Sequence record: MF327009 | Source: Shigella phage Sf25 | Strand: one strand, 5' to 3' | DNA length: 64,000 nt | Shown: piece by piece, positions 18,662 to 39,173 of the stretch | Position numbering within the stretch: position 1 is the stretch's first letter | Layout: every line of letters begins with the position of its first letter | Made by a program: the position numbers and the translations under genes | Notes under the pieces: model-generated | The model's database searches: none | What the model was told of the DNA's origin: nothing | Seen by the model: only the letters and a program-made list of their open reading frames with translations

Positions 18662-20088
18662 TAAAATTTTAATTCATTTGCCAAAGCATCTAACTGAGCT
18701 CGAGTAGATTCATTTCTTTGATAGCGATTCTGCTCAGCCTGAATCTGTTGTGAACCTGCTACTTCGTTCACTTCAGTTGGAGTAGAATCTTGTTCAATTT
18801 CTACCCATTTCTGATTTCCTTTTTGAACACCCATCAAAAACTTATTCCATTTATTCTTATCGCCATATCGTGATTTGATTTGCTTAATGAGTTGTTGTTC
18901 AGCAGCTGCTAGCTCCTCGGTTTCAATGACCGCAAGCATAAAATCAGCTGTTGCTGGAAGACCAGCAGATTCTGCAATATCGCTCATGTTAACATCGGAA
19001 GAGTCCCAAGCTTGTTTACCAACCTGCGCTGCGGTCCAAAGAACAGTTTCGGTTTCAACAGCAAGAGCACGCAATTCCTCTGCAATAGCTTTAACAGTTG
19101 TGTAACTATTTTCTGAATAAACTCTAATGCGGCAAGATTTACAAATACCTAGATAGTCGACAATAATGATTGTTGGAACAAAATTCTTCTTGAGCTTCAA
19201 TTCATTCAAGAGAGACCTGAATGTATTAGCGTCTGCTCCACCAGTAGGATATTGCTTAACGATTAAACGACCGAGAGTAGATTTCTCACGCCATTTTTCC
19301 ATTTTTCCTTTATATTCGGCGTAAGAAATATGTCCATCATCAATATCGTCAAGAGAAACATCGAGCATGTTAGCATCAATACGTTTAGCACAGACTTCTT
19401 CTGCCATTTCCATGGAGATATAAAGAACGTTATGACCAAGCTGCAAATAATCTGCTGCTAATGAGCAAAGTCCTAATGATTTACCAACGTTAACGCCAGC
19501 CATTAAAACGTTCAGTGTTCCTGTTTCAGCTCCGCCTTTTGTAATTTTATTCAAAATACGAAGTTTAAATGGAACCTTACGAGCTTTATTCATATAAGAT
19601 AGCCAGCGTGCTTCGTAGTCATCCATCCAATCATGACCAACGTAGCTATCAAATGAAATTGATAATGCTTGGCGCATGATGTCAGGAATAGCACCTACAT
19701 CTGGCATTTTCTTATTTCGTTTTTCCGGAGGAAGCTCAGCATTAGTTTGAATTTCGATTATTTTAGACGTAGCATTAAACATCGCCCTTTGCTGAACATA
19801 TTTTTCTGTTTCTTTTACTAACCAACTATGGTCTTCCGGAGAATCAGCTAGTTTTGAAATAAGTGTTTTTACACCAGAATATTCTGTTTCAGTAAATGAA
19901 CTATTTTCTAATGCAACATTTAACGCATTAATAGATGGAACGCTATGATACTCATTAACATGAGATTTAATTAATTTGAATGTATTTTTAGCTGGACCAC
20001 TTTCAAAATATTCTGAATCCATATATGGCCAAACTTTTGAAAAATAAGCTTGATCAAATATGAGATGAGAAAGAATAATTTCTACCAC
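18661..20088 (-). CDS. 41: replicative DNA helicase gp41 (DnaB-like), 475 aa
   Basis: RecA-like core with Walker A AGVNVGKS; T4 gp41 length and position. Confidence 0.9.
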   Translation of the reverse strand: MVEIILSHLIFDQAYFSKVWPYMDSEYFESGPAKNTFKLIKSHVNEYHSVPSINALNVALENSSFTETEYSGVKTLISKLADSPEDHSWLVKETEKYVQQRAMFNATSKIIEIQTNAELPPEKRNKKMPDVGAIPDIMRQALSISFDSYVGHDWMDDYEARWLSYMNKARKVPFKLRILNKITKGGAETGTLNVLMAGVNVGKSLGLCSLAADYLQLGHNVLYISMEMAEEVCAKRIDANMLDVSLDDIDDGHISYAEYKGKMEKWREKSTLGRLIVKQYPTGGADANTFRSLLNELKLKKNFVPTIIIVDYLGICKSCRIRVYSENSYTTVKAIAEELRALAVETETVLWTAAQVGKQAWDSSDVNMSDIAESAGLPATADFMLAVIETEELAAAEQQLIKQIKSRYGDKNKWNKFLMGVQKGNQKWVEIEQDSTPTEVNEVAGSQQIQAEQNRYQRNESTRAQLDALANELKF

Positions 20089-20097
20089 ACTTACTCC

Positions 20098-20454
20098 TTA
20101 AAAGAATTTAAATTTTTTCTTTGACCTTTTATTAAATGCATCTTGCAGTTGCATTGTAATACATTTTTCTACATGAGGAGCTAACTCAGCTTTTCTTTCT
20201 TGGTCAAGAACAGCAAAGTCCATTACAACCTTTCCATCAACCCAATCCAGTTTAGTTACATACACTATATGTGTAGAACCATCTTCTAGTTTAATGACAA
20301 TCTCCTGGATAACATTTTCCATAGCGGATTTAATTATCTTAAGAGACTCATTAAAAAGACGTTCTTTTCTTTCTTTTTCCCCCTCCGAAGAGGGGGATTC
20401 ATCGATAATTTCTAAATCTAAATCATCTTTACTCATTAAATTCTTCCATATCAC
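20098..20454 (-). CDS. 40: gp40-position protein
   Basis: Position between uvsX and 41; acidic N-terminus; contains a strong GC hairpin. Confidence 0.5.
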   Translation of the reverse strand: MIWKNLMSKDDLDLEIIDESPSSEGEKERKERLFNESLKIIKSAMENVIQEIVIKLEDGSTHIVYVTKLDWVDGKVVMDFAVLDQERKAELAPHVEKCITMQLQDAFNKRSKKKFKFF

Positions 20455-21610
20455 TTAACTGCTCGAGGTCAGTTTCTAAATCAGCTGCTGATTTACTTTT
20501 ACTTTCTGGAGATTTAAATTTTTCAACCTTTGAGTTAATCAATTCATCAACTTCAGCTTCAACAATTTCATTACTATCAATAGCACCTAACTGATAAGCA
20601 CGTTTAATAGCATCTCGGAATGGCTGATGCTTAAATAAAGGACCCCAGAATGTAGTGCAGTTGGTATCTTTTGCACGCCAAGATTTTTCTTCGCGAATCA
20701 TCTCACCGGTTTCTTCGTCAAGAAATTCACGAGCATACCAGCCATTTTTAGGTTTTACCACAAATCCTAATTCAAGAGCCATATCTAACAATCCAGAATA
20801 AGGATCGATGCCACCGTCAAATTTAACATCAATAAAGAATTTACTTTTTTCTTTAACGGTACGAGATTTTTCTACATTTAGAACAAATTGATACCCCTGA
20901 AGATCAGAACCATCTTTAATCTGGCGCTTACCGATAATGAATACAGTATCAGCCGAATACATTACGCCTGTACCACCTGTCATCACGGTTTTACTAAACA
21001 TTTCAATTGTTTCAATTGTATGGTTAACCGCAACACATGGAATATTTTTAATGCTAAAGTAAGGAGTAACAATACGGAATAATGACTTCAGTGATTTAGC
21101 ACGAGTCATATCTGCCACAGATTTTTCATTCAAGGCATCTTCAGTTTCTTTCTTAGAAGCCATATTACCGATTGAGTCGATGAATACAATAACTTTTTCA
21201 CCGCGCTCAATAGCTTCAAGCTGATTCACCATATCAATTTTTAGCTGTTCAACTGACTGAATCGGCGTATGAATTACTCGTTCTGGGTCAACCCCCATGG
21301 ATCGCAAATAAGCTGGAGTAATACCAAATTCGCTATCATAGAATAGACAAACCGCGTCAGGATATTTGTTCAAATATGCCGCAACCATAGTCAAAGACAT
21401 ATTTGATTTAAAGTGTTTAGAAGGCCCTGCGAAAATAGTTAAACCAGACTGCATACCGCCATCAATCGCACCAGAAATAGCAATATTAAGCATTGGAATT
21501 TTTGTACGAATTACATCCTTTTCATTAAAGAATTTAGATGTAGTCAGTTCAGCAGTCATTTTAGAAGTGGAAGCTTTAATCAAACGGGATTTTAAATCTG
21601 CAATAGACAT
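20429..21610 (-). CDS. uvsX: UvsX recombinase (RecA-like), 393 aa
   Basis: RecA fold with Walker A GPSKHFKS; T4 UvsX-like N-terminus MSIADLKSRLIKASTSKMTAELT. Confidence 0.9.
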   Translation of the reverse strand: MSIADLKSRLIKASTSKMTAELTTSKFFNEKDVIRTKIPMLNIAISGAIDGGMQSGLTIFAGPSKHFKSNMSLTMVAAYLNKYPDAVCLFYDSEFGITPAYLRSMGVDPERVIHTPIQSVEQLKIDMVNQLEAIERGEKVIVFIDSIGNMASKKETEDALNEKSVADMTRAKSLKSLFRIVTPYFSIKNIPCVAVNHTIETIEMFSKTVMTGGTGVMYSADTVFIIGKRQIKDGSDLQGYQFVLNVEKSRTVKEKSKFFIDVKFDGGIDPYSGLLDMALELGFVVKPKNGWYAREFLDEETGEMIREEKSWRAKDTNCTTFWGPLFKHQPFRDAIKRAYQLGAIDSNEIVEAEVDELINSKVEKFKSPESKSKSAADLETDLEQLSDMEEFNE

Positions 21611-21687
21611 TCATTTTTTCCATAGGCATCATTATATTTTCCTCACTGGTTAAAGATAGAGTAATTATAACACAATAAATTTAGGCA

Positions 21688-22536
21688 TTAATCAACTGCT
21701 ATTGGATGAATAGCATTAAACTTATGAAATGCTTCTGATTTTTCTTTACGTGAAACGCACATGCGAAGAACCTTTAATGGTTCGTCTTCTTCACCCAACG
21801 ATTTTCGTTTTTCAATATTAGAAGTTTTCCAACGAGCTTGCTCTGGAAACTCTCTATTGATTTGCTCAAGCGCTCTATTATGTTTAGAATTACTACGAAT
21901 TGAACTGCACCCGCCAGGAGCTTGTGCTTTTCCAGATACAACCAGATATTTGAACAAGGCCAAATGCGGATAACCTTGATTAATTAAATTGAGAAATGCA
22001 TACATATCTTCGCACAAATCAATTTTTCCATACCCAATTTGTTCTGTCGTAAGTTTTCCAAGGTCATACCATGTATTCGTGAATCCATATGAATTTTCAC
22101 GATAATTACCCCAAGATGAAGTAATTTTAAAAATTGGTAGGCGAGCATGACCATGATAATACCCGCAATCCATGGCATCCTCAACGTATTGAATCAATTC
22201 ATAGAACTGTTCACGGGTTAATTGATTGACTTTATCTACACAACGACGGTCATCTCTTTTTCGCATTGAACTCATACGAATAGTAGTATCATCGTCAATC
22301 ATCCAGATTCGTTGACCTGCATACATATCAGTAATTGCTTTACGAGTACCGGCAATTCCGTTTACATCATCAGGAATAGTTATAATTTTAGCTCTAGACC
22401 CATAAGCGTCATAATAAGCTTTTTCTTCATGTTCACGCACTACAATATGGGGTTCATAATCAGTCGGAAACATATCAAGGGCAGAAACTGCCCCGACACG
22501 CTGATAACTTGGAATTACGAATTGAATCATTTCCAC
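21688..22536 (-). CDS. GT-A type glycosyltransferase at the beta-gt locus (282 aa)
   Basis: IWMIDDDT motif typical of GT-A folds; replaces the 351-aa T4 beta-gt between uvsX and 42, consistent with T2/T6-type glucosylation. Confidence 0.55.
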   Translation of the reverse strand: MEMIQFVIPSYQRVGAVSALDMFPTDYEPHIVVREHEEKAYYDAYGSRAKIITIPDDVNGIAGTRKAITDMYAGQRIWMIDDDTTIRMSSMRKRDDRRCVDKVNQLTREQFYELIQYVEDAMDCGYYHGHARLPIFKITSSWGNYRENSYGFTNTWYDLGKLTTEQIGYGKIDLCEDMYAFLNLINQGYPHLALFKYLVVSGKAQAPGGCSSIRSNSKHNRALEQINREFPEQARWKTSNIEKRKSLGEEDEPLKVLRMCVSRKEKSEAFHKFNAIHPIAVD

Positions 22537-23381
22537 TCACCGTTATAATCTTTTTTCACAATATGAGTTTCGCCAGTATTCCACCAATGATCAACCAAGT
22601 AAAAATGACGAGAATATACATGAAGACTTCCAACATTCCATATAATAGAACCTGCTTTATACTGACGAGTTGAATCGCCGGCATTCAAATCAGATACTAA
22701 TTTATCTAATACGTATTTTTGCCATGCATAATCATTACGGAATCCGAAGACCACGTCATTTGAGCGCATGCTTACTACTGCATTGACTTTCTTATCACGA
22801 ATCAGGTACTGTACTGTATTAGTACACATGAAATCTGACATACCATCTTTATTGTAGTCAAATTGCATGGATGGACGAGTCATGCTTACTACTGCATTGA
22901 CTTTCTTATCACGAATCAGGTACTGTACTGTATTAGTACACATGAAATCTGACATACCATCTTTATTGTAGTCAAATTGCATGGATGGACGAGTATAAAT
23001 CATGATACCACGTCGAGAATCAGGATTTTGACCAAGTTCAGCTAAACACATATCATACTGGGCATAGTTATCTTCTGACCAAATAGCCCAACCATAATTC
23101 GAGTTAATTTCGCCTTTAGAAGATGCTACCTGCTGCCAAATCTTTGGTGTTTCGCCTGGAATATCTTTGACAAACAGACTTTGAGACTTGTACCATTCAA
23201 GTTCACGCTGAATGTATTCATCATTAAGAGCGCCAAAAATAAAGGGTTCATCTGCTACAAATGATGCGCCAATAATTTCAATAGTTTTAACACCGGTTTT
23301 ATCAACTACGAAATCTTTTTCTTTTAATGCAAGCCCCAAATGAAGACGGATTTCTTCAACTGTCATAAAGTCACTAATCAT
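22527..23381 (-). CDS. 42: dCMP hydroxymethylase gp42 carrying an in-frame 38-aa tandem duplication (284 aa)
   Basis: Thymidylate-synthase-like fold; peptide VNAVVSMTRPSMQFDYNKDGMSDFMCTNTVQYLIRDKK occurs twice. Confidence 0.85.
   Translation of the reverse strand: MISDFMTVEEIRLHLGLALKEKDFVVDKTGVKTIEIIGASFVADEPFIFGALNDEYIQRELEWYKSQSLFVKDIPGETPKIWQQVASSKGEINSNYGWAIWSEDNYAQYDMCLAELGQNPDSRRGIMIYTRPSMQFDYNKDGMSDFMCTNTVQYLIRDKKVNAVVSMTRPSMQFDYNKDGMSDFMCTNTVQYLIRDKKVNAVVSMRSNDVVFGFRNDYAWQKYVLDKLVSDLNAGDSTRQYKAGSIIWNVGSLHVYSRHFYLVDHWWNTGETHIVKKDYNGEWK
22767..22994. repeat. exact tandem duplication, 2 x 114 bp, inside gene 42
   Basis: Identical head-to-tail copies, in frame. Confidence 0.85.
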
Positions 23382-24601: not shown

Positions 24602-27445
24602 TCAGCCAAACAGGAAGTCTAACGAAGCTTTTTCTTCATAGTCCATACCAGCCGATTCACACATGCCTGCAAGCGGTTTAACAAACGATTTTTGGAACAA
24701 AGTTGAGTAGTCAATCCAAGACAGTACGTCAGAACGAATTTCTTTTGGAAGTTCTGTACCCGACGGCCAAGCAATGCATTTGTCACCAAATGGATTTCCT
24801 TCACGCAATGGAAGAACCATTACTTTATTTCCATCCAAAATTGGAGCTACACCTAAACCGCTAACAGCTCGACGATAAGTTAGCACACCACGAATATGGA
24901 ACGGACATTTAAATCCTGGCCAACCTTTATCATCATATTTCGCTATATCGTTCGCAGTTTTTACTTCAGCAATAACTTTATAGTCAAGTTGACGATATTC
25001 TTTCTCGAAGTTCTTGTAATATTCTTGGACAGACTCTTCACCTTCCTGAAGAATACGACGAATACTTTCTTCGAGAGCTTCTTGGACCGCTTTAGGCGTT
25101 GAACTCTGCTGAGTTTCCATACCCATGATTTTTAGATGCGGTTCAGCAAATCGCTTATCTTCCATATCATATACGTTCAGAGCATAACGCTTTTTCGCTT
25201 TCCAAAATCCGCCAACGCCCTTTGAACCAAGTGGAGGGCAAGAAATAGCTTCACGGTCCATATGCATCAGATGCTCGCGGTTATTCATATAATCACATAA
25301 CTCACGATATGCAACATCAATCATAGGTTCCATCTTTTTCTTACCGAACTGATTCATGAATTCAACTAAATCGTTCTGCTCTTTGAATCGGTCAAGACCA
25401 ACTTTTTCAATAACTTTATCTACACAAACATATACCGAATCAGTATCACCTGCTGCAATGAAATCTTCGCCATTAGTTCCGCATACTTTATTCAGATATT
25501 CATTAATTTTACGAGCAATCCACTGAATACCAACTTGGCCGAAAATTGTGATAGCAGTAGCATTTCGCAAATCATAGTAACGGAAATGAATATTACCAAG
25601 AGCACCATAAAGACTGTTAATAAGAATTTTACGGTTCAGCTGATTTGTGTTAGCAAGTGTAGCTGCTTTTTCACACTCTTCGATCAAACTATTAAGAACA
25701 GATTCGGTGTAATTCGATAGTTCATTTAAGAAATCATCACTGAACTTAACATATCGTTCAACTTCTGGTTTAGTTGAGCAAGACCCTGCGCCTTTCATAA
25801 TAATCTTTTTAATAGCTTCGGCATTCATTTCTTCAGCGAACATTTTCTTTTTCCAATCTTTACGCTGGAAAAATACTTTAGCGATTTCCTTTGGAATGAT
25901 ACCTTCTTGATGCTTATCATACATCCATCCATTCGGAGAACAAGAATATTCATCACTCGGTTTAGGAGCTGTTCCTGCGATATATTCATGAATTGGATGA
26001 ACTTTAAACTGACCACGAATAGTCTCAGGACTAATGTTAACCTGACGAATAATGCTCGGATACAGAGACGTCAAGTCAAAACTCATAATATATCGACGAG
26101 CAATTGGTTTAGGTTCAAACACAAATGCACCCGGAAAACTCTGTTTAACGTGCGAACCTTGTTGAGGAATAACCTTATGTTCACCTTTCAATGAGTTAAA
26201 AATAATAGCATCCCAAGTTTTAATAGGACTCATTACACCGGAAAAAGGCATTTTAGCGTAATAAGACATACTTAAAACTAGATCGATAAACCCGCGAATT
26301 TTATCAATTGCTTGAACTGATTCTACGTCAATGATGTTATAACTAATGTATCGTTGATGATTAGTCTCACGAAGTTTATTAATAGGACCGTCGTATGGTA
26401 ATTTACCTTTTTTGGTTTCATGTTGAGCAACTGATTCCAAAGAGAATGACGGCAAATTAGTAAAAGCGAATTTCTTGTACAAATCTAAATAATCAAGAAT
26501 AGATACGCCATCAATAGAATAAATTTCTTTGCTGCCGTACATATTTTGAATTAGTTTGGATTTTACCCGACCGATTGGAGAGAAACGTTTCATACTGCGT
26601 TCGCCTAGAATCATTTTAACACGATTCATGATATATGGAACGTCAAACCCCTCAATATTCCAACCGGTAAAAATAGCAGGTCGTTTCTGTTCCCAGAGAT
26701 TGATATATTCCATGAGCATATCACGCTCATTATCGAATGGCATATAAATTACTCGGTCAAGAATTTCTTGAGGAACTTCATCACCACCTTCACAGTCAAG
26801 CTTAGCAGCTAACTTTGCATCCCATTTTGATACTGAACCGTACATTGAATTCAAAAGGTCGAAAACATAAAAACGATCGTCAATTGAATCGTAATGAGTG
26901 ATAGCATCAATTTCATATTCAGCTTTCATTGGGTCAGGAAATTTATCACCAGTAACCTCAATGTCACAGTTAGCTACACGAACACCGTACATTGAATTCA
27001 AAAGGTCGAAAACATAAAAACGATCGTCAATTGAATCGTAATGAGTGATAGCATCAATTTCATATTCAGCTTTCATTGGGTCAGGAAATTTATCACCAGT
27101 AACCTCAATGTCACAGTTAGCTACACGAACAAATTTTCGGTCATAAACAATTTCTGAACCATATGTATCACTGATATAAGCGAGTTTAAAATCGTTCATA
27201 CCGAGAGCTTCGAGACCGATGTCTTCCATTCGCTTCATCCAATCTCGAGCATCTTTCATTGATGGAAATTTTTGAGGAGCGCAGTTTTTACCATAGATGT
27301 CTTTGTACTTTGACTCTTCCTTACAATGCCTAAACATAGTTGGAAGATATTCTACTTCACGAGTACGTTCCTTTCCATTTTCATCAATATAACGTTCAAC
27401 AATATTATTTCCGACTGTTTCAATAGAGATATAAAATTCTTTCAT
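24602..27445 (-). CDS. 43: DNA polymerase gp43 (family B) carrying an in-frame 49-aa tandem duplication (947 aa)
   Basis: Exo I (CDIEVTG), DTDS polymerase motif, KKRY; T4 gp43 is 898 aa; duplicated block RVANCDIEVTG...LLNSMYG. Confidence 0.95.
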   Translation of the reverse strand: MKEFYISIETVGNNIVERYIDENGKERTREVEYLPTMFRHCKEESKYKDIYGKNCAPQKFPSMKDARDWMKRMEDIGLEALGMNDFKLAYISDTYGSEIVYDRKFVRVANCDIEVTGDKFPDPMKAEYEIDAITHYDSIDDRFYVFDLLNSMYGVRVANCDIEVTGDKFPDPMKAEYEIDAITHYDSIDDRFYVFDLLNSMYGSVSKWDAKLAAKLDCEGGDEVPQEILDRVIYMPFDNERDMLMEYINLWEQKRPAIFTGWNIEGFDVPYIMNRVKMILGERSMKRFSPIGRVKSKLIQNMYGSKEIYSIDGVSILDYLDLYKKFAFTNLPSFSLESVAQHETKKGKLPYDGPINKLRETNHQRYISYNIIDVESVQAIDKIRGFIDLVLSMSYYAKMPFSGVMSPIKTWDAIIFNSLKGEHKVIPQQGSHVKQSFPGAFVFEPKPIARRYIMSFDLTSLYPSIIRQVNISPETIRGQFKVHPIHEYIAGTAPKPSDEYSCSPNGWMYDKHQEGIIPKEIAKVFFQRKDWKKKMFAEEMNAEAIKKIIMKGAGSCSTKPEVERYVKFSDDFLNELSNYTESVLNSLIEECEKAATLANTNQLNRKILINSLYGALGNIHFRYYDLRNATAITIFGQVGIQWIARKINEYLNKVCGTNGEDFIAAGDTDSVYVCVDKVIEKVGLDRFKEQNDLVEFMNQFGKKKMEPMIDVAYRELCDYMNNREHLMHMDREAISCPPLGSKGVGGFWKAKKRYALNVYDMEDKRFAEPHLKIMGMETQQSSTPKAVQEALEESIRRILQEGEESVQEYYKNFEKEYRQLDYKVIAEVKTANDIAKYDDKGWPGFKCPFHIRGVLTYRRAVSGLGVAPILDGNKVMVLPLREGNPFGDKCIAWPSGTELPKEIRSDVLSWIDYSTLFQKSFVKPLAGMCESAGMDYEEKASLDFLFG
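26837..27130. repeat. exact tandem duplication, 2 x 147 bp, inside gene 43
   Basis: Identical copies, in frame; includes the Exo I motif. Confidence 0.85.
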
Positions 27446-27523: not shown

Positions 27524-27787
27524 TTAAATTAGTACTATTTGTCGGTGAAAAATTGTCATTCCATCTGCATTAATTGACTTAACGACTGCAGTAAAGTGTT
27601 TTTGTTCTGGATGAATTAATTTTTGAAATTCTACCTGAAATTTTAGTTGAAGGTTTTCTGGTAAATCAAAAAGTGTTTCTGTTGCAGAAAGATTATATTT
27701 TTCTTTAAGAGACGTCATGTATTCTTGTGGAGTTATAGCAGTCATATTAATTACCAATCGTATATTTAGGAACGAGTTTCCATTCAT
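27524..27787 (-). CDS. small hypothetical protein between regA and 43
   Basis: ORF track; probable start at internal ATG just after regA stop. Confidence 0.3.
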   Translation of the reverse strand: MNGNSFLNIRLVINMTAITPQEYMTSLKEKYNLSATETLFDLPENLQLKFQVEFQKLIHPEQKHFTAVVKSINADGMTIFHRQIVLI

Positions 27788-28115
27788 GTTTTTGTTTAAA
27801 AGAAATAACTCGGAAGTTATTAGTTAAATCTTTCATAAAAGTTCTTTGACCAGGAACGATTTCAATCAATCCCCAATCTTCTAACAACCATGCAATCGAA
27901 TCACGACGAACTTCATCTTCTTCTGCCATTTCAACTTGACGACCATCCATACGAAGCATTTCTTTAAAATGAACGATATAGTATAGTCCTTTTTTCTGAA
28001 GAATATGACAGGACTGATACAGAACTTTATCTTTATTATTAGCAATTCCCATACGAGTCAAAGTTTCTTTTACTTTCAGAAAATCTTCAGGTTTTTTAAG
28101 AGTAATTTCAATCAT
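27747..28115 (-). CDS. regA: RegA translational repressor, 122 aa
   Basis: 122-aa ORF MIEITLKKPEDFLKVKETLTRMG... at conserved position upstream of 43. Confidence 0.8.
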   Translation of the reverse strand: MIEITLKKPEDFLKVKETLTRMGIANNKDKVLYQSCHILQKKGLYYIVHFKEMLRMDGRQVEMAEEDEVRRDSIAWLLEDWGLIEIVPGQRTFMKDLTNNFRVISFKQKHEWKLVPKYTIGN

Positions 28116-28540
28116 TTTACCATTCCAATGCTAGTTTTTTGAGTTGTTTCTGTTCTTTTACGTTCTTAGTCACTTCTTTCAAAAAATCATATCTTCGACC
28201 AGTTTTGCCCATTTACCATATCTTTTACCACGAGGAACTGCAGCCATCAGATAATTAAAATGAGCTTCATCACTTAAGCCTGATCCAATTAAATTCATAG
28301 CATATACAGCTGGCATGCACTCTGGAAATTGTGATAATGCATTTTCAACCATGAATTTTGAATAATCTTTTTGAGCAATAGAGCATTTAGTTTTATTATT
28401 AATAGCTCCAATTATTTCAAAAAATTCATTTTCAGCTTTTTCTTTAAAAGAATCAGCAGCAGATTGGACAGCTGTCCAATCTTTTGAATACCAAGCAACT
28501 TGATGCTCGTTTAATTGAATATCATCTTCAAATAAGCTCA
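28116..28540 (-). pseudogene. 62: clamp-loader small subunit gene 62, frameshifted/truncated
   Basis: ORF ends prematurely (KLVEDMIF-stop, about 120 aa); conserved C-terminal peptide [23 protein letters not shown] is in the +1 frame ending at the regA start; about 46 codons missing versus T4 gp62 (187 aa). Confidence 0.6.
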
Positions 28541-28542
28541 TA

Positions 28543-29517
28543 TCACTTCCACTGCATTTCACATGCTAATTGAATGAAAAGATAAGCTAAATGTAATTCA
28601 GTGTTAGCTGCAATACCATGATACTGATTATTTTCACCAACAATTTCGTACATACGAATAATACTTTGCGGAGTTACACGTGAATAGATTTCTTCGGCAA
28701 GTTTACCCACGAACCACGAATAATCAGCTGCATATTTTGGTGCTAAAGCTCTGAGTTGTTTAACATCTTTATTTTTGAGAGACTCAAGAACATCATCAAT
28801 AGCACCACGATCGTTAGTAACCAGTGATAAAATACCAGCATCCAAAACACCTTTAGATGAATAACTATCGAGCTCACCAATAGTTTTACGAAAATCAGGA
28901 AAATTCTTTTTAACCAAAGCTGCTACAACTTTCATATCAGCTATAGCAATTCCTTCATGCTTGCAGATTTCAGTCAATCGACGAATCATCTGCTTCATCA
29001 TTTCAATTTTATCTTCATCGGTCGGTTGACCGAATGTAATAACTCGGCAGCGTGACTGGAGAGGTTTAATAATACCATCAATATTGTTAGCAGTAATAAT
29101 AATACTACAGTTTGAACTATAAGCTTCCATAAAGGAACGAAGATGTCGCTGAGACTCTGCTAACCCTGAGCGGTCAAATTCATCAATAACGATTACTTTT
29201 TGACGACCATCAAATGAAGCGGCGCTGGCAAAATTAGTCAAAGGACCACGAACGAAATCAATTTTACAATCTGACCCATTCACAAACATCATATCAGCAT
29301 TTACATCATGACACAATGCTTTCGCTACAGTTGTTTTACCTGTTCCTGGAGAAGGAGAATGAAGAATAATATGTGGAATTTTACCTTTACTTGTAATAGA
29401 TTTAAAGGTTTCTTTATCAAAGGCGGGAAGAATACATTCATCGATAGTAGATGGACGATATTTCTGTTCAAGAATGTGTTCTTTTTCATTTACGGTAATC
29501 ATAATTTCCTCATACAA
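28543..29517 (-). CDS. 44: clamp-loader ATPase gp44 (AAA+)
   Basis: Walker A GTGKTT, Walker B DEFD, SRC motif. Confidence 0.9.
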
Positions 29518-29533
29518 GTTTTAGTGTAAATTA

Positions 29534-29550
29534 TAAAGGGCCGAAGCCCT
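29534..29550 (-). terminator. hairpin between genes 45 and 44
   Basis: AGGGC-TTCG-GCCCT hairpin in the 36-bp intergenic region. Confidence 0.45.
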
Positions 29551-29553
29551 CTA

Positions 29554-30240
29554 TTAAAAATCGTGGGTAGAATCAGCTTCAAGAGCTACTACATAATTCG
29601 CATGTTCACCTTCAAATTTAGCAGCGCCTTGTTTACCTTTTGCCCAAAGCAGAAGTTTATAATTTCCTGGTTGCATTTTCATATTTGCCATATTGATAAT
29701 GAAATTAAATGTATTTTCACCATCATAATCACCAAGAGTCAAAGAATATTTAACACGGGTAAGAGCAGAATCTTCTACTTTATTAAAACCGTTAATTACG
29801 ATTTTACCTTCTTTTACCGTGATAGCAATTGTATCAATTTGCAGACCACGAGATACACGCAACAGCTGTTGAAGGTCTTCAGCTTTAATTTCAGTAACAA
29901 CAGATGCTACCGGGAATGGAATTGGTTTATTAGGAGCAACTACTGTACTCGGATCGGCTGCTGGCCAAAAAATTGTTGAACGAGCATCAGCAATTTTAAT
30001 ATTTCCATCTTCTGACTGGGAAATTTCTGCATCATCATTAACTAGAGACAGAATACCGAGAAAACCGTTCAAATCGTAAATTGCTACATCAAAATCAATA
30101 ACGTCAGAAATATTTGCTTCCGCATAAGTTGTACCATTAACTGCGCGAGTCATAATAAATTGACCGGATTTAAGCATAATACCGGAGTTAATAGTAGCGA
30201 AATTTTTAAGCAGAGCAGTAGTATCTTTAGACAGTTTCAT
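29554..30240 (-). CDS. 45: sliding clamp gp45, 228 aa
   Basis: Exact T4 gp45 length; position upstream of 44. Confidence 0.85.
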   Translation of the reverse strand: MKLSKDTTALLKNFATINSGIMLKSGQFIMTRAVNGTTYAEANISDVIDFDVAIYDLNGFLGILSLVNDDAEISQSEDGNIKIADARSTIFWPAADPSTVVAPNKPIPFPVASVVTEIKAEDLQQLLRVSRGLQIDTIAITVKEGKIVINGFNKVEDSALTRVKYSLTLGDYDGENTFNFIINMANMKMQPGNYKLLLWAKGKQGAAKFEGEHANYVVALEADSTHDF

Positions 30241-30295
30241 GTAATTTCCTTCAATTCAAATGAGATTTAATTTTATAACTAATTTAATAAAGCAA

Positions 30296-30685
30296 TTAAC
30301 GATTAAAATCAGCCGCAATTGTTTCAGCAACAATTTGAGCAGCAACAATTAGGCGTTCATCTGCATTACCGCAATATTCATCTTCTAAACGTTCACCGCA
30401 TGAAGTCATAATAAATTTAGCACCGGCGTTTAGGGATTCTGCAGTATGTTTGCGCATTAGTTCAATCCATTTATTACTTACTTCACGATCGATAGCTTCA
30501 TAATACGCATGACGAGCAGGTGCAGATTTAATTTTGTTCTGAATAACTTCCATTGCGTTATCAGAAAGAGACAAAACCCATGCGCGACGAATTTTATTTT
30601 GGTTTTGCGGATTTGAGTCAGAACGCACGTGTTTTGGCTGAATATCTTTTACATCAACAGTATAATTCACAGTAATTTTAGTCAT
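30296..30685 (-). CDS. rpbA: RNA polymerase-binding protein RpbA-position ORF (129 aa)
   Basis: Size and position downstream of 46-47 and upstream of 45. Confidence 0.6.
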
Positions 30686-30694
30686 AATACACCT

Positions 30695-30883
30695 TTAGTC
30701 ATAATAATCAGTAACAGTCCAAGCTTCATTTCTATTGGACATTATTTTTGTATATTCTGCTTTAAATGCATTCCTAAGCATAGATTCAGTAACTATATGC
30801 TCTTCATTAGAAAAATTATTTCTCAGAATATATCGTTTTATTTCAGGAAAAGTTAATAGATGCTGTCCAGTTGAATATTCCAT
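30695..30883 (-). CDS. hypothetical protein
   Basis: ORF track, 62 aa. Confidence 0.35.
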   Translation of the reverse strand: MEYSTGQHLLTFPEIKRYILRNNFSNEEHIVTESMLRNAFKAEYTKIMSNRNEAWTVTDYYD

Positions 30884-30938
30884 GTTTTTCCTCCATAGAG
30901 ATTATACTCTAATAAATTAAAGCATAATCTCTTATAAA

Positions 30939-32621
30939 TTAAACCATTACAGTAAATCGACCAACTTTCTTCATTTGAAGATGCTGACCATATTCTTGCG
31001 GGTCATGGTCTTTATGCGAAATTATAAAAACATTAGTGTTTTTCATTGAATTTATAATATTAGCTACACCTTTAATACCTTCGGCATCAAATGACCCATC
31101 AAACACTTCATCGAGTATTAACGTACTAATACTAACACCAGATACAATAGAAGCAATATCACGCCAAGTAAATAAAAGAGCAATATCAATTCGTGCTTTT
31201 TCACCTTCACTAAATGAAGCATAACTAAAATCTTCACGACCACGGGATTTAATTGTCTCATTAAATTCTTCATCTAATGTAAACACATAATCCGCTTCCA
31301 TTATTTTAAGATAATGGTTAATCTGCTTATTAAATAATGGAACGTACTTTTTAATAATAGCACCTTTAATACCAGAATCTTTGAGCATATCAGTCAAAAT
31401 TCCTCGGTGGTATTTTTCCATTACTAAATTAGTTTTTGTCTTAACAATTTTATCAAGTTCTTCTTGAAGCAGTGCTATTTCATCAGCATGGTCAATAAAC
31501 TCAGAAGATGCTTTTTCTATAGCTGCTTTAACTTTTTTAGCTTTATCTACCGTCGTGATTAGAGATTGCTTTTTATTGCGAATATCATTTGCCAACGACT
31601 GCTGAGTTTTAATATTATCTCGGTATTCATCAACAAGAACTTTTAAATTATCACGGTGTGTTGAAAGCTGTTCAAACGAATGCGTACATTCAGAAACTTT
31701 ATCTTTAATTTTAGAAACAACTTTATCACCGGAACTTAATTGTGACAAACAGGTTGGACATAATCCACCTTCGTGATACATATTAATGACTTTATTATAC
31801 GAGTCAATTTTTGATTTAATTAAAACTGCTTCTTGACCGATTTTATTAAATGCATCAGTCGGGTCTTCATCCAAAACAATATTAACTAATCTTTCGTTAG
31901 CTTCTTCTATTTCCGATTTTAGCGTTCTAGCTTCTTTTGCCAAATCATCATACATATTTTGTAGACGTGTAAGGTTGTCACCCGTTAATTTTTTCTGGCG
32001 TTCAACGTTATCATTATATATTTTAATTTGTTGGATAATACTATCTTTTTTAACATCAAGCACTTGGTTCTGCGAATTTAATTCACGTATTAGTGCTTTA
32101 TTAAGCTTATCCATTTCAGCTAATGTTCCTACCTCAAGCAGGTCTTCCACAAGCTTTCTTCGCGCAGGGGTCGACAAACCCATGAAAGGGGTATACCCTG
32201 CTGTACCAAGGACAACAATCTGCTTGAAACTGGCATATGACATTCCGATAAGCTGTTCAAATTCTGCTTGGAAATCTTTACTGCTGGCAGATTCATTAAG
32301 ACGTGTACCGTTAACGGTGATTTCGAAAACGTTTGGTTTTTGTCCTCTTTTGATATAGTACTTTTTCTCATCATATTCCATCCACAGTTCAACTAAAAGT
32401 TCTTTCTTATTTGTGCTGTTTATTAATTGACCTTTCTTTACATCACGAAATGGCTTGCCAAAAAGCCCAAATGTGATGGCTTCTAACATAGTAGACTTAC
32501 CACCGCCATTTCGGCCAGTAATAAGAGTTTTTTGAACCTTATCTAATTGAATGTCAATAGGATTTCCACCTACTGACATTATATTTTGATACCTAACTCG
32601 GTTTAGTTTAAAATTCTTCAC
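30939..32621 (-). CDS. 46: recombination nuclease subunit gp46 (Rad50/SbcC-like ATPase), 560 aa
   Basis: Walker A GRNGGGKST, long coiled coil, CPTC zinc hook, C-terminal Walker B/signature. Confidence 0.9.
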   Translation of the reverse strand: MKNFKLNRVRYQNIMSVGGNPIDIQLDKVQKTLITGRNGGGKSTMLEAITFGLFGKPFRDVKKGQLINSTNKKELLVELWMEYDEKKYYIKRGQKPNVFEITVNGTRLNESASSKDFQAEFEQLIGMSYASFKQIVVLGTAGYTPFMGLSTPARRKLVEDLLEVGTLAEMDKLNKALIRELNSQNQVLDVKKDSIIQQIKIYNDNVERQKKLTGDNLTRLQNMYDDLAKEARTLKSEIEEANERLVNIVLDEDPTDAFNKIGQEAVLIKSKIDSYNKVINMYHEGGLCPTCLSQLSSGDKVVSKIKDKVSECTHSFEQLSTHRDNLKVLVDEYRDNIKTQQSLANDIRNKKQSLITTVDKAKKVKAAIEKASSEFIDHADEIALLQEELDKIVKTKTNLVMEKYHRGILTDMLKDSGIKGAIIKKYVPLFNKQINHYLKIMEADYVFTLDEEFNETIKSRGREDFSYASFSEGEKARIDIALLFTWRDIASIVSGVSISTLILDEVFDGSFDAEGIKGVANIINSMKNTNVFIISHKDHDPQEYGQHLQMKKVGRFTVMV

Positions 32622-32881
32622 AAAAGATTCCTTTTAATGTATCTTTTAGACCATTCTATCATATCATCATAATCTAAAAAGTATTCATCAAATTCAGCCA
32701 TGCAAACAACACCTTGTACTGTTTTTGATGTAATATAAATTATTCCAACATATCTGGAATCTTCTTCGGTGTAATCAATATTTGCTACGAATTCATCGTT
32801 AATGTCAAATGTCGAAAACTTCACAGTATGCATCCTTAATACAAGATACAGCCATATCTCGTAATGATTTAGGTGTGTCAT
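32618..32881 (-). CDS. hypothetical protein (46.1 position)
   Basis: ORF track. Confidence 0.4.
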   Translation of the reverse strand: MTHLNHYEIWLYLVLRMHTVKFSTFDINDEFVANIDYTEEDSRYVGIIYITSKTVQGVVCMAEFDEYFLDYDDMIEWSKRYIKRNLL

Positions 32882-33068
32882 TATCTAAAATGTTGAAGTT
32901 AAAAGATACAGCCCAGTCAGTGCAGACCGTAACCTTTTTAATACAATCATCTTCAACCTCTAGCGGTTCAAACCAATATTCAATAATTTCTTTATTCCCA
33001 ATATCATCTTTTACTTCGCATTCAAAATGCTGACTCATCATAACATTTTTAAATTCATCAAAAGTCAT
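32805..33068 (-). CDS. hypothetical protein (46.2 position)
   Basis: ORF track. Confidence 0.4.
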   Translation of the reverse strand: MTFDEFKNVMMSQHFECEVKDDIGNKEIIEYWFEPLEVEDDCIKKVTVCTDWAVSFNFNILDNDTPKSLRDMAVSCIKDAYCEVFDI

Positions 33069-34084
33069 TGTGTTGCCTCTACATATAACTGATTTGCATA
33101 TTGAATAAGTGCTTCGCGATCAGAATCAGTGATGTCTGGAATTGCATTAATGTATTCTTCCATCAACGTCTGAAGAGATTGAACTTCCACTTCTTCGCTA
33201 TCATCTGACTCAACAGAGTTATCAATCTTTGACACAACTCGTAATGAATGCACAACTTTTTCTAGTTCAGATTCGAACTTCGTTAAATTTTTGTCTACTT
33301 CAGTTACTATAACACGCACTGATAGATTTGTAAAATCTTTATAGTCAATTTTTCCCTTAAATGGATATTGAATTCGACGATGCCAGGTAGTGTTGTTTGG
33401 AATAAATTCCATTCGTTCTGTTTCTGTATCAAACATCCAGAACCCGCGAGGGTCATTCTCGTCACCTGCAGTTAGTGTCCATGGTGTCCCAATATATCTG
33501 ACGTTAGCAGCCTCAGAGATAGTATGGAAGTGACCAGACCACACTTCTTTATAAGTCTTAAGGAAATCAGGTTCAAGACCATGAGATTTCATTCCTTTAT
33601 AAAAATAAAATCCGTTCAGTTCCCAGTGACCAACGCAAAAAGAAGCAAATGAAGTTTTGATGTGTTCAAGAATTTCACCAGTATTTTCTTCGCACATCCA
33701 AGGAATTAAATCAATCAAACATCCGTCAAAATCTACTGTAGTAGGCTTATCATATACTTTAACATTAGAATATTTAGCCAAAAGCTCAGTAGAAGCATTT
33801 GGAGTTAAAGTATTTTTAAAGTGCATATCATGGTTTCCTACAACAGTATGTAGGGTAATACCAGCATCATCAAGCATTTGAACTATTTCACGGGCGAACT
33901 CCATAGTTTTATGTGTGATTGCTTTTCGCACATCAAAAATATCGCCGTATTGAATCCATGTAGTAATTCCATTTTTCTTAGAATATTCTATTGCTTGTTT
34001 AATTCCATCCAACTGAATGGATTGAACCCACTCATCATCGGCTTTAACACCTAAATGCCAATCACCTAAATTTAAAATTTTCAT
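33065..34084 (-). CDS. 47: recombination nuclease subunit gp47 (Mre11/SbcD-like phosphoesterase), 339 aa
   Basis: Calcineurin-like phosphoesterase motifs (LGDWH, GNHD). Confidence 0.9.
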   Translation of the reverse strand: MKILNLGDWHLGVKADDEWVQSIQLDGIKQAIEYSKKNGITTWIQYGDIFDVRKAITHKTMEFAREIVQMLDDAGITLHTVVGNHDMHFKNTLTPNASTELLAKYSNVKVYDKPTTVDFDGCLIDLIPWMCEENTGEILEHIKTSFASFCVGHWELNGFYFYKGMKSHGLEPDFLKTYKEVWSGHFHTISEAANVRYIGTPWTLTAGDENDPRGFWMFDTETERMEFIPNNTTWHRRIQYPFKGKIDYKDFTNLSVRVIVTEVDKNLTKFESELEKVVHSLRVVSKIDNSVESDDSEEVEVQSLQTLMEEYINAIPDITDSDREALIQYANQLYVEATQ

Positions 34085-34242
34085 ATATCAAGAACCGTCA
34101 TTGAAATGCAAAATAAAATTATTGAAATAAATCCATCTGGAGTGCTAAAGAACCCAATCCAACATGCTCTAGTGAATAGATAAAATGCGAGAAAAAGTAT
34201 CACATATCCAAGAAATATCATTATATCAAACTCCGTATAAAG

Positions 34243-34262
34243 CTAAAGGGCCGAAGCCCTTT
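34243..34262 (-). terminator. hairpin at alpha-gt 3' end
   Basis: AAGGGC-TTCG-GCCCTT hairpin overlapping the stop codon. Confidence 0.45.
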
Positions 34263-35463
34263 ATTTTGTAATAATGTCAAACTGTTCTTTAAAGCAGAAG
34301 CTTGAATCTTGATGCTGATACAAAAATTCATAAGCTTTTTCGCGTTCACGGTCATAAAGAGTTCGGTCAGATGACAGTTCTTTAATACGCTCAAATGTTG
34401 ATTCCATGTCATTTTCATCAAACCAAACGATACCGCTATCATGAGAAATTAACGGAGTATTATCAACACGGAATTTTAAATTTTCGCCAGTAGATTTCCA
34501 AAATACCGGAATTGTTCCACATGCACCAAGCTCGAGATGAGTATATTCTAAAGAACGTTGTAGATATTTTTTGTCCAACTTACTCAGCTGATAACCAAAT
34601 CCGGATTTACTCATGCGTTCAAGCATTTCGCTATTTACATAACGGTCAAGAATTTGCGTTGGCAAATTAGGAGCAATTTTAATTTGGTCTACTTGATGAA
34701 GACGATAATACTCGTATGGAATTCCTTTTTCTTTAATAGGAATGAACGCTGGAGAACGTTCCAGACCTTCCATAATAGTACTTAGTCCTGCAGGTTTAAG
34801 ATGTTTTTCATGAAAATCAAACATCTGATAAAAACCTTTCCATGTAGTCGTACGACCAATCCAACGGTTGATATTCATGTTAATTTCAGAAACATCTTTC
34901 CAGTAGGTTGACCGAACCTTCGCAATATCCATAGGAGGCTGAAAGTTATATACTGTCGGTGCTTCTTCAATATCATCAAACAGAGAAACTGTTTCAGGAT
35001 ACCATTCTTTCATCAGAACTTTATTAAAATCACCATTATCAGAATGGCTAAAAATAACATCAGCTCGACGAACAGTTTCTTCTAATCCCAAATTTCGGCG
35101 CAAAGAAAGAGAAGAATGGTCATGTTGATAAACTACAACACGAACAGAAGGTTTAATGTTATCAATAATTTTTTTATAGTTATTAATAGTGTCTTCTTCA
35201 ACCGAAGTAGCAGGAACTGAATTGATAATTAGAATATCACAATCATTTACCAGCTTAAGTGTTTTATCATATTCTTTTGCCAATAAAACCGGAATTGAAA
35301 ATGATTTATAATCATGCGCGCAATTACGAGTAAATGATTTATCTTTAGCATAAACCAAAGTTACTTCATGACCATTCTTAATAAACCAATCACGTTGCTC
35401 AAGAGAAAATTTAGTTACACCACAACCTTCAAGACCTCGAGCCATAAAAATACATACTTTCAT
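34261..35463 (-). CDS. a-gt: alpha-glucosyltransferase (400 aa)
   Basis: Exact T4 alpha-gt length; N-terminus MKVCIFMARGLEGCGVTKF. Confidence 0.8.
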   Translation of the reverse strand: MKVCIFMARGLEGCGVTKFSLEQRDWFIKNGHEVTLVYAKDKSFTRNCAHDYKSFSIPVLLAKEYDKTLKLVNDCDILIINSVPATSVEEDTINNYKKIIDNIKPSVRVVVYQHDHSSLSLRRNLGLEETVRRADVIFSHSDNGDFNKVLMKEWYPETVSLFDDIEEAPTVYNFQPPMDIAKVRSTYWKDVSEINMNINRWIGRTTTWKGFYQMFDFHEKHLKPAGLSTIMEGLERSPAFIPIKEKGIPYEYYRLHQVDQIKIAPNLPTQILDRYVNSEMLERMSKSGFGYQLSKLDKKYLQRSLEYTHLELGACGTIPVFWKSTGENLKFRVDNTPLISHDSGIVWFDENDMESTFERIKELSSDRTLYDREREKAYEFLYQHQDSSFCFKEQFDIITK

Positions 35464-35706
35464 TTAATATCCTCTTTGTTTTGGTTTATTTTACCAAAAA
35501 TTTATAAAGCAATATAGGAGCCGAAGCTCCTATCCACATAATACGCCATACAGAGGCTCATTAGAACTTTTAAATTTTATGCGCTTATATTTTATAGTTC
35601 CTTCTGCTTTAGCTTTATCATGAGACGCTTTAAAGAGTCTCATCATTTCCTCTTTAGAGGAACGAATTTTATTATAATCTATTTCAGAAGTCTGGGTGTT
35701 CATCTT

Positions 35707-35913
35707 TCATAACTGCCACCATTTTTTGACTTGATAAGAATCAACCCACACTTTCATATTAGGGTCTGCTCTTACAATAGGAGGATTAACTTCTTTAATT
35801 GAACTATCATGGTATTCTTTTTCAGAAATTTTCACACAAAGATGACCATTCAAAGATTCAGTAAATCCTGCATTAATTTTAAGACGCTTGAATTTTACGT
35901 GTGTAAGCATCAA
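35707..35913 (-). CDS. hypothetical protein
   Basis: ORF track. Confidence 0.35.
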   Translation of the reverse strand: MMLTHVKFKRLKINAGFTESLNGHLCVKISEKEYHDSSIKEVNPPIVRADPNMKVWVDSYQVKKWWQL

Positions 35914-36196
35914 TCATATCCTCAATTTGCGATCTAGTAGTCTTCCAAAGAATACTGATGAGTTCATCGTTATATGGCTGTTTTAGAATATCCCGACTTT
36001 TCTTGATAGCATATTCGTATTGAGCAAAATTATTATTTTCAGCTGCGATCTGAGCGTGCTTATAAAGACGATTCAGTTCGCGTTTGTTTTTAGACAATAA
36101 CTTATTTGCTTTTCTTTCTGCTTCAAGACGGTTCTTTTCTTCAATAGAAGAAATAAGCTTTTCCACTTCATCATTAATTTCGGGTTTATCAGTCAT
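35879..36196 (-). CDS. hypothetical coiled-coil protein
   Basis: ORF track. Confidence 0.4.
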   Translation of the reverse strand: MTDKPEINDEVEKLISSIEEKNRLEAERKANKLLSKNKRELNRLYKHAQIAAENNNFAQYEYAIKKSRDILKQPYNDELISILWKTTRSQIEDMIDAYTRKIQAS

Positions 36197-36197
36197 A

Positions 36198-36416
36198 TTA
36201 TTTCTCTAATATAAAATAAAAATCATCATCTGTTAAATGATACCGATAGTTTAATTCTACACCATTAGATTTAAAAGCGGTATCATACGGATTTTCTGGA
36301 TCAATATCAATGTCAAGAGCTAAAACTTCCCTGAGATACATTTTAAGTAAATAGGGAATAGCTTCAACTTCAGGTATTTCTTCCAAGAATCCGGAGAGGT
36401 TAATCGTTAGCCTCAT
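36198..36416 (-). CDS. hypothetical protein
   Basis: ORF track. Confidence 0.35.
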
Positions 36417-36963
36417 ATAAAAAATCCAAACTAGGAGAATCGTCTACAACACTTTTCTTTTCAGCCCCCGGTGTTCTATAGGTTGATTCTTCGTAATGCG
36501 TCATTTTATCATAGATGTCTTGAATAAAAGTTTCATCTACTAACGCAACCATATCGTCGTCACGACTGTCATAGACATTGTGAACGAAGTAACTATATTT
36601 CTTTGCAACTTCCTTACGTTCTTTTTTAATACGCTGGACGAATGCATTAAAACAAGCTTGAGTTATATACGCATGTGGGTTTTTATATTTCGTTTCATCA
36701 AAATTATGAAGCCCCTTAATAGAAGCTTCTATACCATCTGCAATCATTTCTTGTTTCCAAGACTGGGTGTATCCTGAAAAGTTGAAACGTTTAGATAAGC
36801 CTTCTGCAATAAGCATAATGGCTAATCCAATAGTATCATTTTGACGAACTACTTTATTTGGGTCTTTATTATTTGCTAATTCTGTTTTCCAATCAATAAT
36901 AGCTTGTAAAAGCTCTTTATTGTTTACGTAATTATATTTAGGCTTAGTTTCTGACATTTTCAC
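36400..36963 (-). CDS. 55: late-transcription sigma factor gp55
   Basis: 187 aa; position between alpha-gt and nrdH as in T4. Confidence 0.8.
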
Positions 36964-37035
36964 CTCTTAGCTCAATTCATAGATCTATTATATCATAATA
37001 TTTGAAGATCTATCTTAAAGCATAGAGGATATCAG

Positions 37036-37305
37036 TTATCTAAGTAAACAGTATGCTTGGAATACTTTTTCCATCATCTTTTTAAATTCATGAATATCTA
37101 TATAATGACTAGTTAAATCAGCATGATATAAAAAGTCTAAAAACTTTTCATGTGTACTAACATATTCGCTTTCATTTAATTCAGAAACATGGCTTTCCCA
37201 ATATCCAACACCAGTCTTATTTGGGAAAAATGAAATTTTCATGTATTGGTCAACATAGAAAATGCCATAATTTTCAATAGTAATAGAAATATTAATAAAT
37301 TTCAT
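37036..37305 (-). CDS. hypothetical protein
   Basis: ORF track. Confidence 0.35.
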   Translation of the reverse strand: MKFINISITIENYGIFYVDQYMKISFFPNKTGVGYWESHVSELNESEYVSTHEKFLDFLYHADLTSHYIDIHEFKKMMEKVFQAYCLLR

Positions 37306-37517
37306 ACATTCATCAACTTAGCCGCTTCAAGAGCTGCATCTAGTGAATCAAATTGGTCAACATATTCAATCAATTCGCCATAATTGGCATATAACCACCA
37401 TTGGCTAAATTCATACTCAAGGATGAATCCATTTCCTTCAATTTGAGTTAAACCATTGCCGTTTGTATTTACTTCATATCCGGCAAGACGCAAATCGTTA
37501 ATAAGAGCTTCGTTCAT
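37302..37517 (-). CDS. hypothetical protein
   Basis: ORF track. Confidence 0.35.
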   Translation of the reverse strand: MNEALINDLRLAGYEVNTNGNGLTQIEGNGFILEYEFSQWWLYANYGELIEYVDQFDSLDAALEAAKLMNV

Positions 37518-37519
37518 AA

Positions 37520-37846
37520 TTATACCTTAGTAATTTTCAGGTCTGCAAATTTTTTCTTGCGTTGATTTTTCATACGACGAATAGTTTTATCGGAAATTTC
37601 ATGTTTTTGATAAGCTTTAGATTCTACACCAAAAGCTTTAACATCAAATTCTGACAAGATATATTGAACCAACAATTCACGGACAGTATTTCGTCCAATC
37701 TTCTGATCATTCTGTTTCATCGTCTGATGAAGCTCTTTTTCCCATTTATCCAAAATTTGAGGAGTTACAATATCGCCTTTTTCTAGCAAAGAAACTACTT
37801 TATCATATGCGTAAGAATTGATGGCGTTTTTAATTTGAATAGTCAT
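37520..37846 (-). CDS. hypothetical protein
   Basis: ORF track. Confidence 0.4.
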   Translation of the reverse strand: MTIQIKNAINSYAYDKVVSLLEKGDIVTPQILDKWEKELHQTMKQNDQKIGRNTVRELLVQYILSEFDVKAFGVESKAYQKHEISDKTIRRMKNQRKKKFADLKITKV

Positions 37847-37881
37847 ACATTATCCTCAATTGCGTTAAAATTTTATTATCC

Positions 37882-37900
37882 AAAAAGGGCCGAAGCCCTT
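37882..37900 (-). terminator. hairpin terminator-like element
   Basis: AAGGGC-TTCG-GCCCTT hairpin in intergenic region. Confidence 0.45.
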
Positions 37901-38099
37901 AGCTAAACTTTTTGGCACCCTTCCAGCCTTCATACATCATTGCGGCTGATATTAATATTGCTCCTGAGCATTTTGAATATTTGGTATTCCAAAACCAGTT
38001 TAGAAAAACTTCGTCATCAATACCTTGGGCTATCATGTTTTCAAAGAACTGACGACGAGCTTCAGCAATTCGTTGTGATAATTTAGATTCAGGATTCAT
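37899..38099 (-). CDS. hypothetical protein
   Basis: ORF track. Confidence 0.35.
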   Translation of the reverse strand: MNPESKLSQRIAEARRQFFENMIAQGIDDEVFLNWFWNTKYSKCSGAILISAAMMYEGWKGAKKFS

Positions 38100-38237
38100 T
38101 TAAATTTTCCAGTTACCGTTTTCATCAATAAATTCAATCCAGTCATTTACTGACCACTTAGTTGTATCGCCTTTGGGGCAGAATTTAAAGTGTATAACCC
38201 CTGCTTAAAAAGCATTCGTTTGATATTCATATTTTCC

Positions 38238-38570
38238 TCAACTGTAACGATAACATTTGTTTGATTTACGTTTTGCAACACGATGAGAAGTATTGTAATC
38301 CAAATCATCCTCAACGTATACATCTTTTTTCAACTGACGAACTTCTTTACGCAGTTGACGATTCATCTCATTCTTGACTTCTGAATCAACGCCATAAAAA
38401 CGTTTCCATTTGTCCGAACGGAAGATATTTTTATTCAAAGTTTCTTCTGATACACCGTCAGGTGCTTTACGTCTAGCCATGCAATTAAAATCTTTAGAAG
38501 ACAATTCTTTACGACGATACGTTTTACCCATGGAGTTTAATTTCCTTAGCAACTGAACTAAATGCAGCAC
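38238..38570 (-). CDS. hypothetical basic protein
   Basis: ORF track. Confidence 0.4.
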   Translation of the reverse strand: MLHLVQLLRKLNSMGKTYRRKELSSKDFNCMARRKAPDGVSEETLNKNIFRSDKWKRFYGVDSEVKNEMNRQLRKEVRQLKKDVYVEDDLDYNTSHRVAKRKSNKCYRYS

Positions 38571-38706
38571 GATCGCAAATCATGCGTTTATGTAACTTGA
38601 GTATAATATAGCAAACTTCAAAACTATTTACATGAGTAACACGAACAGCATTACCATTAATGAGATAATACTGTCCCTTTTTAATTTCTTTATCAACCAC
38701 AACCAT
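38524..38706 (-). CDS. hypothetical protein
   Basis: ORF track. Confidence 0.3.
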   Translation of the reverse strand: MVVVDKEIKKGQYYLINGNAVRVTHVNSFEVCYIILKLHKRMICDRAAFSSVAKEIKLHG

Positions 38707-38864
38707 ATCAATTCCTCAAAGGTAATTCATATGTTAATAATACCACGGTTTGAACTTGTTGTAAACAACTTTGTGAAAAATATTTTAGGGAATGATAAGA
38801 AAGGAACGATAGCTTAGAATGGTAATATACAGAATGCGAGAAAGAAAGGCCCAGAGGGCCCGTC

Positions 38865-39173
38865 TTAATCTTCTATGATATCTCTATCATATCCAAGTGA
38901 AATGAGAGTTTCTTTGAAGTGTTTAATGTTCTTTTGTCTAGAATCATTAATGAAAATGACTGGATAACGAATGTTAAGAGATGTGAATCCAGCGCGTTTA
39001 GCAAGAGATACAATCAGTGGACGATCATACTCAATCTTACCGTTATTTGTAAGAACTTTATAGAAAGTAAAAGGAGCATTGAGCTCCTTTAGAAGTTTTG
39101 TAACTGATTGACATCCAGGACAACGACCTACTTCATCTGGAATTCCATAGACTTCAATCTTATTTTGTTTCAC
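38865..39173 (-). CDS. nrdH: glutaredoxin-like protein NrdH
   Basis: CPGC redox motif near N-terminus; position upstream of nrdG/nrdD. Confidence 0.6.
   Translation of the reverse strand: MKQNKIEVYGIPDEVGRCPGCQSVTKLLKELNAPFTFYKVLTNNGKIEYDRPLIVSLAKRAGFTSLNIRYPVIFINDSRQKNIKHFKETLISLGYDRDIIED

Follow-up and report, generated by a model that had tools for sequence, protein, structure and literature searches.

Gene 62 in T4-like phages and in the window

The gene 62 product (gp62) is the clasp (A-position) subunit of the gp44/gp62 clamp loader, and engineered T4 without its clamp and clamp-loader genes grows only with a helper plasmid (PMC8121543). T4 gp62 is represented by the Pfam family PF16790 (Phage_clamp_A) and by the PDB entries 3U5Z, 3U60, 3U61 and 8UH7, and its chain 8UH7_A differs in one residue from the gp62 of Shigella phage Sf24. 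The window (i.e., the whole 64-kb stretch of DNA analysed here) is that of a Tequatrovirus, a T4-like phage, and is closest to Sf24, with which it shares 99.1% identity over 20 kb. As in other T4-like phages, the gene order 45-44-62-regA-43 is kept. Gene 62 is located between gene 44 and regA, and its start is coupled to the gene 44 stop in a TGAnATG arrangement: the TGA occupies 28545-28543 and the ATG 28541-28539, one base further on along the minus strand. The features of the region are listed below, with gp62 residues numbered as in T4 gp62 according to the PDB alignment.

28543..29502, minus strand: gene 44 (clamp-loader ATPase subunit), intact, 319 aa, the same length as in the Sf24 annotation (from the ORF list)
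28191..28541, minus strand: native codons 1-117 of gene 62 (MSLFEDD...KLVED), from the ORF list, the alignments and the PF16790 match
28190..28191, minus strand: blunt joint at which 139 bp are missing, from the alignments, the junction contexts and the 499/499 records that carry the segment
28179..28190, minus strand: out-of-frame tail ATG ATT TTT TGA (M-I-F-stop), which ends the 120-aa gene 62 product
28117..28188, minus strand: 3' end of gene 62 (codons D165-W187 and the TAA stop), stranded in the -1 (= +2) frame relative to the 5' part and identical to relatives
27747..28115, minus strand: regA (translational repressor), intact, 122 aa

Read from its native start, gene 62 is normal up to the joint (..GKWAKLVED), enters the tail and stops at 28181-28179. 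On the minus strand the joint reads GAAGAT/ATGATTTT, where the slash marks the point at which the two sides meet. The loss comprises codons S118-T163 and the first base of D164, so that, unlike T4 gp62, the window's gene 62 is without 46 codons plus one base and its frame is broken. Agreement with relatives is nevertheless 99-100% both in residues 1-117 and in the last 23 codons, which are stranded, and the stop of the stranded part (TAA at 28119-28117) is followed one base beyond by the ATG of regA at 28115. The gene 62 start and this stop enclose 425 bp, whereas the gene measures 564 bp in relatives.

These coordinates bear out what the preliminary description had read from the letters. It had placed the start near 28540, coupled to the gene 44 stop, and the ATG is found at 28541; it had ended the reading frame after about 120 codons (..KLVEDMIF, stop at 28179), and the product is 120 aa long. 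The gp62 C-terminus that it had seen stranded in another frame up to the regA start consists of 23 codons in the -1 frame. Its estimate of an internal deletion of about 139 bp (about 46 codons plus 1 nt), drawn from the lengths of 425 and 564 bp, is matched exactly by the alignments to phages KMB42 and Sf24, both of which present a single clean 139-bp gap at 28191/28190.

The 120-aa product is matched by PF16790 with 148.1 bits (cut-off 27, E = 3.1e-43). The match extends over residues 37-117 and, of the 144 profile positions, takes in only 1-88, whereas the 187-aa gp62 of Sf24, used for comparison, covers positions 1-144. The complete domain is therefore not found in one frame in the window, as it would be in a protein of about 187 aa. 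A sub-threshold match to another Pfam family, SIR2_2 (PF13289, E of about 4e-4, 21 bits against a cut-off of 24.5), spans gp62 residues 3-110 in both the truncated protein (window 28182-28541, minus strand) and the full-length protein of Sf24. Although it is reproducible in both sequences, this match is probably spurious.

The region was compared with 50,697 phage records by megablast and blastn. A 1.3-kb query across the gene 62 site matched 605 records, the best of them 98-99% identical, and these best matches come as two pieces that together take up 1440 bp in the record but 1301 bp in the query. With a 121-bp query that has the joint at its centre, 499 records were matched at a coverage of at least 80%, all of them in two pieces spanning 260 bp. 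The preliminary description had held that a natural gp62 of about 120 aa in close relatives would speak against a deletion; the missing 139 bp are present in 499/499 phage records that cover the site. The junction string has no match in IMG/VR, in the JGI metagenome contigs or in the GTDB genome contigs. Exact-product look-ups in the gene index returned no called gene with either the 120-aa gp62 or the 947-aa polymerase described below. The Dda and NrdC.11 products match those of other phages, including AR1 (AP011113), at a DNA identity of 92-97%.

A Logan contig from a different strain (ERR9613155_766, 1.4 kb) encodes a gp44 protein identical to that of the window and terminates within gene 62 in CTGTCTCTTATACACATCTCC (1340-1383). 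We take this terminal sequence to be the Nextera transposase adapter, which would make it untrimmed adapter in an unrelated assembly.

Duplications and deletions elsewhere in the window

The window was compared by local BLAST with Sf24, Ge15, slur08 and seven further relatives, each discontinuity being checked against at least two relatives. Thirteen window-specific discontinuities were found from 9990 to 55403, namely eight duplications and five deletions including that in gene 62, which separate pieces of 0.4-11.9 kb. Besides the gene 62 joint, the junctions are at 9990, 11019, 13499, 13943, 22880, 26984, 40050, 45593, 46152, 47391, 48585 and 55403. When Tandem Repeats Finder (TRF) was applied to the whole window, it reported eight two-copy repeats with 100% identity and 0 indels:

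10811-11226: tandem duplication of 208 bp (TRF)
13699-14187, minus strand: tandem duplication of 244 bp, which frameshifts gene 56 (dCTPase)
22767-22994: tandem duplication of 114 bp (TRF)
26837-27131, minus strand: tandem duplication of 147 bp within gene 43 (DNA polymerase), 1.2 kb from the gene 62 joint
39874-40227: tandem duplication of 177 bp (TRF)
45903-46401, 47142-47641 and 48337-48835: three tandem duplications of 249 bp, in the nrdC.4/.5/.6 genes

Where relatives align across any of the eight, all of them have a single copy. The genes distorted by them are modB/modA.2, gene 56, gene 42, gene 43, nrdG/nrdD and nrdC.4/.5/.6. In gene 56 (13940-14308, minus strand), which is essential in T4, the reading frame from the native start stops after the first copy, following 'SEMQSKKI', and the remainder of the gene is in a second reading frame at 13531-14016. 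The gene 43 polymerase is 947 aa long, with 49 residues doubled, including the ..NCDIEVTG.. stretch, presumably the Exo I motif. In gene 42, 38 aa are duplicated. The length of 249 bp is exact in all three of the longest duplications. At least nrdC.3 and nrdC.4 belong to one Pfam family, and repeats such as neighbouring nrdC genes are places where assemblers tend to break.

The four deletions other than that in gene 62, likewise blunt, are the following:

9990/9991: deletion of 156 bp in modA, microhomology 0 bp
13499/13500: deletion of about 335 bp between soc and gene 56, two small genes affected
45593/45594: deletion of 48 bp at the start of nrdC.3, start codon affected
55403/55404: deletion of 145 bp between mobD.5 and mobD.6, microhomology 0 bp

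All four deleted blocks are carried by every relative checked. Microhomology at the five deletion joints, including that in gene 62, amounts to 0, 2, 0, 1 and 0 bp, which is the chance level.

Between the junctions the sequence is clean in comparison with Sf24, with no gap over 8.9 kb and three over 11.9 kb. Hence, the fault lies in joining and not in base calling. The density of single-nucleotide differences from Sf24 also shifts at the 13 junctions: with 500-bp flanks, the mean absolute log ratio is 1.28, against 0.65 +/- 0.19 at random positions (p ~0.003), in a statistical test with Sf24 as sole reference, whose natural mosaicism adds noise. At 13943, for example, the number of differences per kb drops from 26 to 2, and at the gene 62 joint it drops from 13 to 1. 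Such shifts are the pattern expected of contig ends at strain-variation boundaries.

Over window positions 5200-55700, identity to Sf24 is strongly mosaic, at about 99.8% in 13943-22880 and 28191-40050 and 93-97% elsewhere, and several of the identity switches coincide with structural junctions. This mosaic suggests either that a mixed T4-like population was assembled into a chimera or that natural mosaicism caused breaks in the assembly graph.

Several other differences were considered as candidate anomalies and set aside. Those at about 12620, where another relative agrees with the window, and at about 51800 and 62430, where Sf24 agrees with it, are natural gene-content variation. At about 17200 Sf24 again agrees with the window, the extra sequence being present in slur08 only. 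The segment at 27530-27747, a short divergent stretch downstream of regA, was likewise rejected; it holds a small ORF in the gene 43.1 position and has no megablast match to Sf24. Near motB, the segment at 3744-4592 has no megablast match to slur08. Both resemble the variable segments that are ordinary in T4-like genomes rather than artefacts.

Origin of the gap in gene 62

The pattern of discontinuities across the window makes it very probable that the 139 bp are missing from gene 62 through an error of assembly or joining and not through a mutation of a living phage. Given 12 similar anomalies in the same window, the gap is almost certainly an assembly fault. Discontinuities of the same style occur repeatedly in this one sequence and are absent from all relatives compared, and the duplications have a fixed upper length, three measuring 249 bp and none being longer. 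Genes that the phage needs are damaged by them: genes 62 and 56 are frameshifted, gene 43 gains 49 aa and gene 42 gains 38 aa. The preliminary description had rightly called for read support before any biological conclusion; the biology that it implied, a truncated clamp-loader subunit or a need for programmed frameshifting, is not supported, with 12 further discontinuities in the window and no frameshift signal at the joint.

The window resembles known contig-join artefacts in draft phage genomes in its 100%-identical two-copy repeats capped at 249 bp, its blunt deletions of similar size, its junctions at strain-variation boundaries and the clean sequence between them. It differs from them in that the overlap lengths are not all equal. 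Since three duplications share the maximum length of 249 bp, a technical length is indicated, such as a read length or a k-mer size; since the lengths vary (114-249 bp), however, one fixed k-mer overlap cannot account for all of them.

A plausible course of events is that contigs were joined end to end, possibly in a reference-guided scaffolding step applied to a short-read assembly that was fragmented and may have mixed several strains. Overlapping contig ends that were retained twice would yield perfect duplications in tandem, the longest of 249 bp, and contig ends that did not meet and were closed without Ns would yield blunt deletions. One gap closed in this way would then lie in gene 62. 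Editing of the sequence, whether deliberate or by some other computational step, would have an identical appearance and is counted within this explanation. From the observed gap, its uniqueness and its 12 sister anomalies, we infer contig joining as the most likely mechanism. In the actual phage, gp62 is expected to be normal, with 187 aa.

The strongest competing explanation is that the 139 bp are truly deleted in a defective phage, whose loss of gp62 would be complemented by a co-infecting wild type or by a complementing host. The deletion is clean and its flanks are otherwise perfect, the sample may have contained several strains, as the shifts in SNP density at the junctions hint, and the helper plasmid is a precedent for sustaining T4 without its clamp-loader genes (PMC8121543). 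Such a deletion, however, must coexist with 12 other lesions in 46 kb, including the gene 56 frameshift and the three 249-bp duplications, and no biological process predicts such a lesion set. Its joint is in no other record or contig among the phage records, IMG/VR, the JGI metagenomes and GTDB. We therefore consider a real deletion unlikely, with the variant that it may be genuine at the gene 62 site alone, amid unrelated artefacts.

Spontaneous deletions in T4 usually arise between short direct repeats, as is reported from classical rII deletion studies. The gene 62 gap is compatible with these repeat-mediated deletions in size (tens to hundreds of bp). It is unlike them at its end points, where neither a direct repeat nor microhomology (0 bp) is found, which also counts against a real deletion. 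The GAT triplets that the preliminary description had noticed on both sides of the joint are literally present (GAAGAT/ATGAT), yet they provide no usable microhomology. A deletion mediated by GAT repeats was rejected, given that the loss would then be of 141 or 144 bp, in frame, and not of 139.

A further version, more doubtful again, combines a real deletion with a means of survival: the genome, or a defective subpopulation, would persist through co-infecting wild type or through a low-level -1 slip on U6-UGA that makes a mini-clasp gp62. If the mini-clasp were true, the clasp subunit could do without residues 118-164, a stretch of 47, in clamp loading.

It is very improbable that a -1 slip on the U6 run (AUU UUU UGA, tRNA-Phe re-pairing one base back) yields a working minimal clasp without residues 118-164. 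The joint does put a six-T run right before the frame-0 stop, and the -1 frame runs straight into the native gp62 C-terminus. However, the T run occurs in every relative as ordinary in-frame GAT TTT TTG and is no evolved signal, and the frame-0 reading ATT TTT TGA does not fit the X XXY YYZ pattern, so that only single-tRNA slippage at the stop is conceivable. No canonical slippery heptamer was found in the zero frame at the joint, and no stable downstream stimulatory RNA structure over the 98 nt from the joint onward, which have a minimum free energy of -4 kcal/mol (z = +1.99; 197/200 shuffles fold at least as well). The product would also lack PF16790 positions 89-144 of 144. No two-frame arrangement of gene 62 was found in relatives, those aligned or annotated having a single 564-bp frame. 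With neither heptamer, nor structure, nor conservation, programmed -1 frameshifting at gene 62 was rejected.

A natural lineage with a gp62 of about 120 aa and exactly this terminus is hardly credible and, within the reach of the databases, refuted, given that the extra 139 bp are in all 499 of the 499 records, including relatives 98-99% identical over 1.3 kb, that the joint is missing from the three large contig collections, and that a 3' remnant 100% conserved and ending precisely at the regA start means that the loss is not ancient.

Meaning for the phage and its annotation

As a matter of quality control, joining errors number at least 13 in the 64-kb window and break or distort genes 62, 56, 43 and 42, modA, nrdG/nrdD, nrdC.3-.6 and the mobD.5/mobD.6 region. 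Gene-level oddities in this sequence (i.e., frameshifts, truncations, internal repeats and 'novel' fusion ORFs) are suspect until they are checked against the reads. If the deletion were real, it would give an internally deleted clasp subunit in a well-studied replication machine, which would be of moderate interest to clamp-loader specialists. In all likelihood, though, the gene 62 truncation is not a real feature and offers nothing new as biology. The biological weight of the finding is small: this phage almost certainly has a normal clamp loader.
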